A stretch of 64,000 nucleotides of DNA, taken from the NCBI GenBank assembly GCA_951406725.2, contig OX597817.1:56544001-56608000 (forward strand). Direction: 5' to 3'. The notes below the pieces were generated by a model, which was not told the DNA's origin, made no database searches, and saw nothing but the letters and a program-made list of their open reading frames with translations. Positions 26,510-52,147 of this stretch are shown piece after piece. The stretch's first letter is position 1. The number at the start of each line of letters is the position of its first letter. The DNA is from Octopus vulgaris (taxonomy: Eukaryota). The position numbers and the translations under genes were made by a program.

Positions 26510-29500
26510 GTTTCTTTATTGGCCACACAGGGCTGCACACAGATGGGACAAATTACAAGGTAGAGATTTTCTTTTGTGGGATGAAAGAAAACAAAAAAAA
26601 AACAAAAAAACAGGAGAAACGAAAAAATGTGGCGTAGGTTTTCGATCAAAAGGGATCGTAAAAGGGGGAAAAGGAAAAAAAAAGAAAAGAAAAATAGAGG
26701 AAGAAAAAAGAGGAAAAAAGGGGGAGAGGAAAAAAACGATCAATAGGGATCGTGTATCACAGTGTCATGATGTATGATGTAAAGGGGAAAGCAAGTAAGG
26801 TTTATCCGTGGGAAGAAAATCCTACGAAAAAGACCACGGTAACCTTGGTCAGTATTGTTATATATTACCACATTTGTTTGCAAGTGGGTAACCCTCTGTT
26901 TTCAATTTCTGGGTTCATAGGATTATGCTCAAGGTGGCTTCGTCATTCATACGTGCCATCCTTGCTACATTCACCCATCTTTTTTTAAAACATTCGCTAG
27001 ACAAAACTTGCCTCTCTACTCTCACTTTCCTTTTCAAGTGGTACTTGAAGAAGTTGATGAGAGATTGACCAGAGAGGAAAGTGTTTGTCTCCAATCCTTT
27101 CAGACGCGTCCACCAGATACATTTCTTCGCCATAGCCACAAGGATGATGAAAATAGCTCTTCCTTCCCGTTTGAAGGAAGGAGGCGTGACAATATTGACG
27201 ATAGACTCAGCTGATAAACCGACTCGTCCCACACGTGACAGCAGTTGTTCGAAATAAGCCCAAAGGTCGTTAATTGTTGGACACTGCACGAGGCGTGCAG
27301 AACGGTTTCGTCGCTCTGACCGCATCTCGGGCAGGTCGGCCCCGTGTTTCTCGAGCCGTGTCTGTAGAGCTTATCCCGAATGGGTAGCGCTTCTCGGTAG
27401 CACTGCCAGGCCAGGGATCTCTGGAAGTTGTCCATGGGCCCTGGACCGAAAGTCGTCCAGAACAGGTGGATCAGGTATTCCTCGTCGACGTCCAGGTTCG
27501 CCCCGAGCTCGTCGTCGTACCTCCCCTCCATTAATCCCCTATAGAATGCTTTGGTTGTGATGCAGTCATTCATGGTCGACCCAGGACGACAGAGTTGCTT
27601 GAGAGCAACGCGACACTCGAGGTGCCATACGCTCTTCCTCGGCCTCTTTTTTATCCACGACTGCAGTTCGGTCATGGAGACGAGCTGCGGGAAAGCGTGC
27701 CTCACAAACGGTGACCACACCTGTTCACCGTCGTCTACGAAGAGCCTGAGATGTCGCAGTCTCAGCGCGTGTCTGCGCATCATCAACCACGGCATGCCCA
27801 GTCCTCCTTTTAACGGGTGTTGACAGCAAATGGATCGCCTGACCATCGGGATGCATCCTTTCCACAAGAAGCGAAAGAGAATGCGTTCTAGTTTGGTGAT
27901 GGTAGGGTCGGGACAAGGTAAGACGGTCAGGCGGTAGTAGATGACGGACGCGATGTACGTGTTCACCACCTCCGCTCGACCTTTTAGGGACAGTTTCCTC
28001 TCGGCCCATTGCCGGGCGAGAGTGACCACCCTACTCGTTATCTCGTTCCAGTTCTTCTCCACTTGGAGGTCCGGACCGAACCAGATCCCGAGCAACTCGA
28101 CCGGGCCGTCGGTCCAGCGTCCCACGACGGAGGCGCTGGTGTACGGCATGGGCTTGCTTCTCCAGGTGCCTAGTCGCAAACCCACTGACTTTTTCCGTTT
28201 GATTTTCGCTCCTGTCACCGCTTCGTAGTTTTTCAGTGTCTCGCCGACCTGCTCGATGTGCTCATGGCTAGACACTATGACGGTGACGTCGTCCGCGTAT
28301 GCAGACATGCTCGTCCCGCATCCCACTTCTCGCGGGATGCCCCTCAATGTTGCCAGCTTCCGCAATAATGGCTCGAGAGTCAATACGTATAGAAGCGACG
28401 AGAGGGGGCATCCCTGACGGACCGAACGTGCGATGTCGAAAGGTCTCGATAGATGTCCATTTACGCGAATTACCGAACGGATGCCTCTGTACAAAGCGGC
28501 TATCCAGCCGCTGAAGACGGGACCGAAGCCAGCCGCTCTGAGGACTGCCTCCAAGTATCGATGGTCCACCCTATCGAAAGCTTTCGATTGATCCAAATTG
28601 ATAAGCACCCCACCCATGCCAGGTTCGTTAACTACCCTATCTATGATGTAGCGCATCAGGTGGAGGTTGTCATGGATGGTCCGGCCCGGCACGGTGCATG
28701 TTTGCGCCTTGTCGACCAGTTTCTCGATGACAAGCGCCAAAATTTTCAAGTCTGCATTAAGCAGAGTGATTGGCCTAAAGTTATCTATTACATTTCCCTT
28801 GTTTAGATCTTTCTTCAGCAGTATTACGGCTCCTCGGCTCACAAAACCAGGAATGCTCCCGTTTTGTTGCCAGTTGCAGTACACCGCTGCCAAGACATCT
28901 CCAAACCAGTCTTGCATACAATTGTAAAGCTCGTAGGGTAGACCATCCAAACCCGGTGATTTGTCCCTCGAGCATTCTGCCAACTCGTCCTGCACTTCCG
29001 CCGCCGTGATGGCACCTTTGCAGCATCCTGCCTCTCTTGTCGAGAGTCGTGGTAGGCTGTGTAGGTAGGCACTGAAGTCCACCCTACGTTCTTGCCCACC
29101 ACTCGTCCCGAACAGTCGGGAAAAATGCTGTTAAAAGGCCTCACACATTTTACTTGGCTCGATCAATTCGCGCTCCTGCTCATCTACCAGAGACCGAATG
29201 GTGGCTTCGTTGCCCTGTTGCGCCTCTGCCACACGGGCCTCTCTCGCGGCTCCAACACCTTCGTTCCTTAGAGCATGCATCCTAGCTCTGACAGCACACC
29301 CTTCGTGTTTGGCGTTGAAGTGTTGGTCGAAGGCCAACCTTGCCGCCAAAACGTCGGATGCGATGCCGCTTCTAATTGCCTCTTCTAGCTTCTTAACTAG
29401 CTCACCCTCTACTCTATTTCTATCTATGGCTAGTGCTTTGCTGTACCTAATCGCTTCTGCTTTTACTGCTCTCTTGAGGACAAACCACCATTTGTTGTTG

Positions 29501-43088: not shown

Positions 43089-43152
<64 letters not shown>

Positions 43153-43153
43153 C

Positions 43154-43272
43154 TAAACTTACTTGGAAATGGATGTGTGGCGTTCAATCATATAATAATA
43201 TAAATAATATATACATATATTATTTATATTAATATTTGATTGTACGCCACGCATCCATTTCCAATAAATTTA
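43154..43272. repeat. Fold-back inverted repeat of about 120 bp
   Basis: ttggaaatggatgtgtggcgttcaatca...tgattgtacgccacgcatccatttccaa with a self-complementary AT-rich centre. Confidence 0.9.
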
Positions 43273-43861
43273 TTGCAATCTTTTGATGCGACTCTACCCT
43301 ACACTGTTTTCTCCCGCTATCGTTTTCCCTCTCATACTTTCTCTAATGCCTTTTTCTCCCTTTCACCGATGTCGGTCTGTCTCTCTCGCCCTCTTTCTTG
43401 TTTATTCTCTCTCTCATTGCTAGCACGTCACCATCGTCCATCTTTCTTTTCTTCGCTTATTCATCTTTCTTTTTTTTTCAGGGCTGTTCTAAAAACTGGA
43501 CGTATCATGTAACTCTCTTATATTTTTTCTCTCATCAAAAAAAATTATTTCTCCAGCGTTCGTTGTTTTACCCTCATTCTGGTCTAACCACCCTCTATGT
43601 TTGTTTTCGTTCTTTTTCCTTATATATCTCTACTGTCCTGGTTTCGTTCCCAACTTTGACCCTTCATAAATCCCAAATTTTATTTTAGAAGACTCATATT
43701 GTCGTTGAATGCTCGAAATGAGAAGTAGATAGACAGCCGACAACTGATGAAGGGTCGTTCTTCATGTTACTTGTCTCGTTTTCCATTTGTTTCTCTCGTT
43801 GTTTGTTTTCGTAGACCAATGAAGCAAGTAAAAGAAGATAAAAATAAGATATATGTGTGTG

Positions 43862-50223: not shown

Positions 50224-50841
50224 TTATTTCTCTTGCAAAAGTAACGCTGCGACGGACTGGTGTCCCGTCCAGCTGAGGAACACATACACCATAGAAACCG
50301 GTTAACTGGGCCCATGAGCCTGGCTAGGCTTTAAAAGGGCACATTTATTTATTATATACATATATGCTCATCATAGAAGGACAAACTGGACTAGACGGAG
50401 CAAGATGATACACGTAGATGGAAAGGGTCGCTGAAGAGTCGCAGAAAGGTTTCCACACAATGGAAATATGATAAGAACAATAATAAACGAGTGAAGAACG
50501 AATATATAGTGATTGTTTATATTTGGTCAAAAAGAAAATGACTATCGCTAAATGTGTGTACGTGTATGTGTGTGTGTAAATATATAAATATATTTGTGTG
50601 TGTATATGTGTGTGCATGCGTGTGCGTGTGAATATATATATGTGTGTGTGTGTGCGTGAATGGATGGATGGATAGATATTTATATATACACACACACATG
50701 CATATTTGGGTACTGGACGTCACCAACAGTACAAATAACATGAAAGATGTAAACAACGAGAAAAAATGGAAAACAGTACAAGTAACCACAGAGAAATGAC
50801 GCTTCATCAGTTGTCGGCTGTCTATCTACTCCTCATTTCGA

Positions 50842-50882
<41 letters not shown>

Positions 50883-50884
<2 letters not shown>

Positions 50885-52116
50885 TTTCCACTGTTTATAT
50901 ATATATTTTTTATTGTTTATATGTTTGTACTGTCGTTACCGTCTTGCTTTTTACCCTCTGCAAAAAGATCTCAGAATTTTAATTGATTTGCTTTTCGCAG
51001 GAAGGAATTTTTCATTCGAAGTATACGTCTCGCTTTTATCCTTCGAAACGTTTAGTAGATGAAACTTTAGCGACTGAAGAAGGGGATTTTTCGTTGTGCT
51101 TATTGTCCTGTATCTCTCTCTCTTTTTTTTTGCCTGTCTTGTTCCTTGGTTTGTGTCTATGTTTTTCGTCTCTCTATGTGTTCGACGTCTTTTTGGTGTC
51201 CTGTACACATATATGCGTGTATATGTACATGTAGAGGTAGGTACGTACATATATGTTTATATATATGCATATATTTTATTAACATATTATACGACTAAAC
51301 GCACGCACCCTATTAAGTAAGATTGTTCTGTTTATCAAGTTCGCCTTGATATTAACTCTCACGTGACTCTGCATCTTTCTTTCTTTCTCTCCCATTCCCT
51401 TTTTCGTCTTTTTTCCCTCACTTAACTTGTCTCTTCCTCTCTCTCTCTCCCTCACTGTTCTTCATGGTCTCCTCGCACCATTCCCCTTCTTCTCTCTCTT
51501 CCTCTTGCTCCTCCTCCCCCATTCCCGTCGTCCATCTGCGACGTTACTTCCGTCGTAACTGCTCCTGTCCTTTCTCGCCCGCCTTCTAAGGCCACTGGTC
51601 GACATCTTCCTCTCTCGTCGTCCACTATAATCCAGCGTTTGCAATACTTTTTTCGTCTGGCGTTAACAGCCCTTCTTATCTTGTTCTCCTTGTCCTGTCT
51701 CTCACTGTTATATATTTATTTTTCCACTGTTTATATATATATTTTTTATTGTTTATATGTTTGTACTGTCGTTACCGTCTTGCTTTTTTACCCCTCTGCA
51801 AAAAGATCTCAGAATTTTAATTGATTTGCTTTTCGCAGGAAGGAATTTTTCATTCGAAGTATACGTCTCGCTTTTATCCTTCGAAACGTTTAGTAGATGA
51901 AACTTTAGCGACTGAAGAAGGGGATTTTTCGTTGTGCTTATTGTCCTGTATCTCTCTCTCTTTTTTTGCCTGTCTTGTTCCTTGGTTTGTGTCTATGTTT
52001 TTCGTCTCTCTATGTGTTCGACGTCTTTTTGGTGTCCTGTACACATATATGCGTGTATATGTACATGTAGAGGTAGGTACGTACATATATGTTTATATAT
52101 ATGCATATATTTTATT

Positions 52117-52124
<8 letters not shown>
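50883..52124 (+). mobile_element. Element with two ~405-bp near-identical direct repeats around a ~430-bp pyrimidine-rich core (pseudo-LTR-like)
   Basis: 50883-51287 matches 51719-52124 at an offset of ~838 bp; the ORF track shows duplicated peptides. Confidence 0.8.

Positions 52125-52147
<23 letters not shown>

Follow-up and report, generated by a model that had tools for sequence, protein, structure and literature searches.

A hammerhead-type fold with reversed block order, its core split between A9 and G10.1, is encoded in the genome of Octopus vulgaris, where it probably cleaves in cis the RNA of the Penelope-type repeats that carry it. Its helices, their covariation, the invariant core, the nature of the carriers and a step in 5' ends at the predicted cut all come from sequence comparison.

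The window analyzed here is a stretch of 64,000 nucleotides of contig OX597817.1. In it, GAAA precedes CTGAWGA at 43715/43744 (+), 51045/51074 (+), 51883/51912 (+), 50839/50810 (−) and 11707/11678 (−), exactly where a preliminary description had placed these words. Four of the five copies have GTAGA at spacer positions 7–11, the spacer contains no stem I of its own, and the three sequence groups of that description proved to be three independent repeat families. The spacing of 25 nt, which had been called invariant, is not: the first 30 genome matches have 25 (11 matches), 24 (18) or 23 (one), and with 22 and 26 also seen the spacer ranges from 22 to 26 nt across copies. Among GAAA-before spacings of 0–79 in the window, none besides 25 has more than two matches. 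The window alone is not decisive, because it holds only three independent families and the chance of three or more matches at any one of 160 spacings is about 0.09.

Is the pattern enriched in the genome as a whole? Across the 2.8 Gb searched, a microsatellite-rich sequence, CGAAA-N22..25-CTGAWGA matches 23,747 times (11,816+11,931), compared with 1,505 matches (742+763) for a reversed-pattern control and 4,534 (2,218+2,316) for a spacing of 28–31. The excess of spacing 22–25 over 28–31 is about 19,000, and a likely count of motif copies, judged from this excess, is roughly 19,000 or more. The expectation that standard descriptors would miss the motif was confirmed: Rfam gave no match at gathering score and no hammerhead among the best 150 of 564 weak matches. 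Matches in a tblastn search with the motif flanks were dominated by a common repeat.

The predicted strand order, 5' to 3', is P5a, the P6 hairpin, P2a (from G10.1), P4a, a loop, P3b-U16.1-H17 with the predicted cut, P1b, 1–4 nt, P2b, GAAA, P3a, a loop, P4b, P1a, CUGAWGA and P5b. The blocks follow each other as site-GAAA-CUGAWGA, and the partners of the spacer sit upstream of GAAA. Four of the five window copies have a UH triplet 16–17 nt before GAAA, with the stem III partner on its 5' side and the stem I partner on its 3' side; in the fifth (50839) the site region has been lost to (TA)n. The initial interpretation as a non-canonically permuted hammerhead-like fold is upheld. Its trans-acting variant is not, as the cleavage triplet and the partners of stems I and III are present in cis, 14–17 nt upstream of GAAA. 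Nor is its type-II-like variant: type II (GSC) would place the site, along with loops I and III, in the segment from GAAA to CUGAnGA, and this reading fails because the cleavage site lies upstream instead. The 5' strand of stem II (P2a, with G10.1) lies 35–44 nt upstream of GAAA and covaries with the bases before GAAA, pairing as GGCTG/CAGCC, GAAGGA/TCCTTC, GAGCA/TGCTC, GACACC/GGTGTC, GGCCGG/CCGGCC or GCCCAA/TTGGGC in different families. After A9 the strand pairs further upstream to form a closing helix, P5, and the P6 hairpin ends at the base before G10.1, so that P5 and P6 bridge the break.

P4 is joined to stem III by an internal loop that links P3 and P4 on both strands and often has the shape of a kink-turn; the GTAGA element of the window copies is part of this loop. 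Kink-turns of the box C/D or Kt-7 type consist of a 3-nt bulge followed by tandem G-A/A-G pairs, placed between two helices. Measured against this consensus, tandem GA occurs in 18/25 families and the full pattern is predicted by sequence in 10/25, including the Naiad family and F3/F4. F1/F2-like families combine tandem GA with other bulge sizes, 7/25 families are without tandem GA, and several Naiads from outside octopus have a plain bulge instead.

How could a core broken at A9/G10.1 function? P5 and P6 would stack end to end as one nicked helix, with A9 and G10.1 flanking the nick, and a normal core would form. The loop between P3 and P4 would bend sharply and return P3 beside P1 and P2, a bend that may explain why the spacer is held at 22–26 nt. 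The split-core fold, the type SGC of Eckert et al. and the type CSG of nematode Naiads would be three openings of one RNA circle. We think it fairly likely that the fold is an active hammerhead with a discontinuous core, a fourth natural opening of the reversed-order circle, located at A9/G10.1, held by stacked P5 and P6 and often bent by a kink-turn. The open literature searched contains no description of a split-core, reversed-order fold and no precedent for an active hammerhead core broken at A9/G10.1; a precedent for a helix inserted at this position may exist in subscription papers.

The window copies represent both intact and damaged states of the fold. The focal motif is part of an F1 repeat, a non-coding Penelope-type repeat at 43207..43805 (+) with limits set by a blastn comparison to a further F1 copy, and it is accompanied by a short inverted piece of the 5' part at 43142-43220. 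Compared with intact F1 copies, the focal ribozyme at 43658..43756 (+) is defective. It retains P5a (43658-43663), P3b with U16.1 (43693-43697), H17 (43698), a predicted cut between 43698 and 43699 (triplet AUA), P1b (43699-43704), P2b (43710-43714), GAAA (43715-43718), P3a (43718-43722), P4b (43731-43736), P1a (43738-43743), CTGATGA (43744-43750) and P5b (43751-43756). It lacks about 24 nt near 43687, the part with P6b, P2a and P4a, and is probably inactive. A second F1 copy at 50710..50845 (−; 3' limit approximate) is 5'-truncated and without cleavage site. Immediately following (TA)n, it begins with P2b, some 10 nt 3' of where the cut is predicted, a start that places the window copy at 50839 in the short-copy class of the 5'-end pile-up described below.

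The F2 repeat at 50873..52128 (+) is a non-coding partial tandem with a period of 838 nt, bounded by (TA)n tracts and containing two ribozyme copies. Copy 1 (50953..51085, +) has the complete six-helix fold: P5a 50953-50957, P6 50958-50967 with 50991-51000 (one mismatch), P2a 51001-51006, P4a about 51009-51015, a predicted cut between 51029 and 51030 (triplet GUC), P1b 51030-51034, P2b 51039-51044, GAAA 51045-51048, CTGAAGA 51074-51080 and P5b 51081-51085. Copy 2 (51791..51923, +) is likewise complete, with a predicted cut between 51867 and 51868. On the opposite strand, the F3 non-coding Penelope-type repeat at 11579..12025 (−) contains a complete six-helix fold at 11656..11800 (−), with P2a at 11746-11742, GAAA at 11707-11704, CTGAAGA at 11678-11672 and a predicted cut between 11724 and 11723 (triplet AUA). 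The F3 representative shows the canonical kink-turn pattern between P3 and P4.

Other features of the window were recorded alongside. Canonical-order cores, type-I-like and minimal, are present at 11419(+), 10526(−), 55706(+), 55295(−), 18043(+), 19754(+) and 61104(+); several of them stand as inverted pairs, and both wirings coexist in the window. A 676-aa open frame at 27103-29130(−) with an RVT_1 and a weak zf-RVT match is a LINE-type remnant unrelated to the ribozyme fold. Two open frames at 15678-16773(+) have motifs that resemble those of a restriction-like-endonuclease LINE; a Pfam search of these two frames gave no match.

Genome-wide, exact patterns identify at least 347 copies of F1, 428 of F2, 53 of F3 and 2,511 of F4, the commonest family examined, to which F3 is related. 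All 40 of 40 F2 copies among the matches listed are 100% identical over 111 nt. Members of F1–F4 are non-coding and flanked by (TA)n. Their 3' end is fixed, some 130-250 nt beyond the core, and their 5' ends vary; inverted 5' pieces occur, as do partial tandems (713-860 nt). Such features are hallmarks described for Penelope-like elements (PMC8557442). F1–F4 contain no ORF, and apart from the common architecture their DNA does not resemble the Naiad 3' UTR; we take them to be non-autonomous carriers. The invariable 3' terminus of insertions falls on a short TA-rich patch within the tandem monomer (L285, L307, L093 and window 51270-51300), as if (TA)n targets prime inside a longer or circular RNA. 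The F2 unit is covered by contigs of presumed RNA runs, which resolve neither ends nor strand nor level; the matches listed show no joint and no pile-up.

Which enzyme could mobilize these repeats? Many intact Neptune-like ORFs of 753-782 aa are present, 98-99% alike in the 753-aa family (L127:2770-2810, L143:2585-2625, L471-L475, L483, L484), and they are candidates for the enzyme that moves F2. Neptune-like elements were rejected as autonomous carriers of the motif: none of 30 GIY-YIG loci has it as its own 3' UTR, and the single nearby case among 20 further PLE loci is a nested insertion. The Neptune-like 3' UTR contains a different core, a type-I minimal one of the published U3-A8 kind.

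If the fold cleaves, the genomic copies may preserve a trace of it. We mapped the 5' ends of 256 copies of F1–F4 (F1 70, F2 63, F3 30, F4 93), selected solely on an exact pattern that lies 3' of GAAA. Of their ends, 46 fall within the 15 nt beginning at the predicted cut and 4 within the 15 nt that precede it; expressed per 100 nt at risk, the rate is 1.47 versus 0.15 (p=3e-9), an approximately tenfold step. Five of the 256 copies end exactly at the predicted cut. By family, the numbers from and before the cut are 27 vs 2 for F4, 15 vs 1 for F1, 2 vs 0 for F3 and 2 vs 1 for F2. The signal is carried by F4 and F1, thin in F3, where 7 ends were misfiled as deletions (6 of the 7 being 3' of the cut), and absent in F2. 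Most simply, the step would reflect run-off where a cleaved template ends. On cut RNA, a Penelope-like reverse transcriptase that is primed at (TA)n would run off at the cut and yield short copies; uncut or re-ligated, possibly circular, RNA would give rise to the longer and tandem copies. Cleavage would have to be incomplete or reversed, since 57/93 F4 copies continue past the cut site. In L325, L348, L362 and L436, internal deletions cross the predicted cut or stop at it, which possibly reflects a jump of the reverse transcriptase across nicked, still base-paired RNA.

Could the same ends arise without catalysis? The fold might be a conserved RT-loading or protein-binding scaffold of hammerhead descent, with 5' ends produced by stalling of the reverse transcriptase at the knot. 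The many copies that run through the site would suit such a scaffold, as would the high frequency of ends within the fold itself, at 15-29 nt 3' of the predicted cut, and the kink-turn pattern, which suggests protein binding. We nevertheless consider it unlikely. The NUH triplet (H = A, C or U) and all catalytic positions are kept in 22/22 tabulated families while the helices turn over, with several Watson-Crick pair types per position in P1, P2 and P3 of the 22 hand-picked families. The step coincides with the predicted scissile bond; by the time the enzyme arrives there, it would already have copied the 3' strands of P1–P4. Other RNAs with this core order, those of type SGC, are described as cleaving in vitro, and so are type CSG RNAs (Eckert, Friedrich, Weinberg & Weinberg 2023, PMC10085705).

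The collected genomic families covary both in partner-swap tests and in a MAFFT alignment. The swap tests covered 31 of 37 sequence clusters, six being left out as microsatellite-truncated. P1+P3 score 16.8 with partners of their own family and 7.5 with swapped partners (p<5e-5), upstream P2 10.5 versus 6.7 (p<5e-5) and upstream P4 12.2 versus 10.1 (p about 1e-4). As the families are related, these permutation p-values overstate independence and are not probabilities of independent events. In alignment A1 (MAFFT, 12 related families) the upstream model pairs 86% of cells, compared with 18-43% for slid controls; 19/24 pairs show double changes, a value that none of 500 shuffles reached, and P4 has double changes in 6/7 pairs. 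The core columns CUGAnGA and GAAA are invariant in 12/12 rows, which had been chosen by these words. G10.1-C11.1 and A15.1-U16.1 are both kept in 22/22 hand-picked families.

P5 and P6 were scored on 25 family representatives; the 22-25 representatives and the offsets used for the pair table, P5/P6 and kink-turn scoring were picked by hand. The P5 duplex has a mean of −9.9 kcal/mol with its own partner and −7.8 with swapped ones, the own partner being best in only 5/25. P6 scores 14.2, compared with 8.7 for shuffled sequences (maximum 10.3), and peaks at the G10.1 edge. Stacked P5+P6 occurs in 19/25 own folds versus 188/600 swapped folds. Among the first 30 pattern matches, taken unselected, 16 have the upstream site block and 18 have an upstream P2 of at least 5 bp, as against one with a downstream P2 of that length; those without the site block are truncated or decayed. 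At spacing 28-31, none of 22 matches (20 loci) fits the six-helix fold. A young repeat family with GAAA-N31-CTGAAGA (L491-L493, L510), often present as inverted pairs, does not fit it either.

The same tests bear on the possibility of an ordinary type-SGC hammerhead, in which stem II would be formed by the strand right after CUGAWGA and the upstream strand would serve as a switch or decoy. The S-G-C order and the short S-to-G linker agree with published type SGC RNAs (PMC10085705). P2b and the downstream flank could form 4 bp, often with many G-U pairs, in F1, F2, F3 and F4, and a portion of this flank could pair with the linker; the outer-flank stem II of the preliminary description is, in this sense, possible on paper, but it does not covary. 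Downstream stem II scores 5.9 with its own family and 5.7 with others (p=0.26), downstream P4 9.8 and 9.9 (p=0.55), so neither shows family specificity. Double changes are found in 0/4 pairs of the downstream P2, which is 62% paired, and G10.1-C11.1 is present in only 4/12 rows of alignment A1 in its downstream version compared with 12/12 in its upstream version. In several families downstream stem II is weak or absent; in 14/14 the upstream duplex is the stronger of the two, and the downstream strand is already used by P5. We therefore regard the ordinary type-SGC fold as very unlikely. Two related proposals were rejected as well: a plain type SGC with downstream stem II and a 5-nt insertion in F3, for the same lack of family specificity and covariation of the downstream strand, and the downstream flank as a product-release mimic of P2a/P4a, the flank being the P5 strand.

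How does the split-core fold relate to known ribozymes? Type SGC, represented by HRIMA-1 and variants, is defined by the order site-GAAA-CUGAnGA, and the available text of the paper reports it from metatranscriptomes only (PMC10085705). The split-core fold and type SGC have in common the reversed order, crossing P1/P2/P3, a short linker between stems I and II and a fourth helix (P4 in the split-core fold) that ties stems I and II together. In type SGC, stem II directly follows CUGAUGA(U), and the block of CUGAnGA and stem II was assumed not to be interruptible; in the split-core fold, the 5' strand of stem II and a P4 strand lie upstream, A9 is followed by P5, P6 precedes G10.1, and a GA-containing loop joins P3 and P4 on both strands. 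The type-SGC descriptor, which requires CUGAUGAG or CUGAUGAUG and then stem II (PMC10085705), would not describe this fold. Of the features of a hammerhead, the fold has the CUGAnGA/GAAA core, an NUH triplet with A15.1-U16.1 and stems I–III with compensatory changes, stem II using its upstream strand; it deviates in that A9 is not covalently next to G10.1, where at most 1-2 inserted nt would be allowed, but continues into P5. Comparison lends good support to the fold itself, which would work like a hammerhead and shares the SGC order, yet falls outside the contiguous-block-C definition of both the classical family and type SGC.

Is the fold restricted to non-autonomous repeats? On the same strand, the motif lies within 1.5 kb downstream of a Naiad-type RT at 9/30 RT loci. 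These Naiad-like RT pieces give weak RVT_1 matches, below cut-off, and all local pieces are short or broken. One family, Naiad-O, matches the 3' end of the Naiad_Obim/Naiad_Ovul consensus by eye in both DNA and peptide, and single-copy Naiad 3' UTRs hold the whole fold. On these grounds the split-core fold is the predicted ribozyme of the local Naiad element. Naiads are described as being without canonical HHRs, with some unexplained 'HHR_core' and 'HHR_half_core' cases, in the available text of Craig, Yushenova, Rodriguez & Arkhipova 2021 (PMC8557442). We inspected the Naiad consensus file published in the supplement of that paper by eye, via short-word searches that did not display all records and overlook motifs interrupted by a line break. 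The full split-core arrangement is present in 10/54 records from five phyla: Naiad_Bfor (with a stem I of only 2 bp), Naiad-3_Chem, Amil, Aacu, Anas, Naiad-2_Movir, Plae, EuTe, Obim and Ovul. Type CSG was seen in 7/54 records, all from nematodes. The 3' motif of Naiad-1_Movir in the same file looks twister-like. Bivalve, hemichordate and two Clytia records have another conserved 3' motif in common, possibly HDV-like. Other structured 3' motifs seem to be present in Naiads that lack the split-core fold, and Naiads may exchange one ribozyme class for another. As in the repeats studied here, (TA)n targets, partial tandems and inverted 5'-truncated copies are described for Naiads (PMC8557442); F1–F4 differ from them in having neither an ORF nor a DNA match outside the fold.

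F1–F4 also resemble non-LTR retrozymes, described as non-coding, ribozyme-bearing tandems that are probably non-autonomous PLE derivatives or passengers (PMC4209133; 10.64898/2026.07.22.740005). In F2, F3 and F4, non-coding tandem monomers of 713-860 nt each have a ribozyme fold. The hammerhead of retrozymes and minimal PLE elements is of type I, in circular order (PMC4209133), which F1–F4 lack, having the reversed-order split core instead; and unlike retrozymes, the monomers of 713-860 nt are mostly found as single or short partial-tandem insertions. That the active unit forms by strand exchange between neighboring copies, in a dimer, tandem transcript or circle, is most improbable: tandem and inverted arrangements are common, minimal PLE hammerheads have been proposed to act as dimers (PMC4209133) and P5 would, in a circle, simply close off the remaining monomer, but all six helices fit in about 135 nt of one copy, stem III has 4-6 bp and is not palindromic, and Naiad 3' UTRs accommodate the whole fold in single copy.

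The reading of the fold as a self-cleaving hammerhead with a split core, if true, would make it the first ribozyme of non-circular permutation to be found in animal genomes, with conservation reaching from comb jellies to octopus. Such ribozymes, so far placed on unassigned metatranscriptome contigs, would then also be present on animal chromosomes, and in very many copies. The assumed contiguity of the CUGAnGA block and stem II would be overturned, widening ribozyme searches and engineering. The genome itself predicts the cut site to the nucleotide. Naiads were taken as evidence that Penelope-like elements thrive without hammerheads; many of them appear to carry a form that descriptors missed. 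The fold would be one of the 'missing' ribozymes of these retroelements, and its cut site would be recorded in tens of thousands of copies across the genome.
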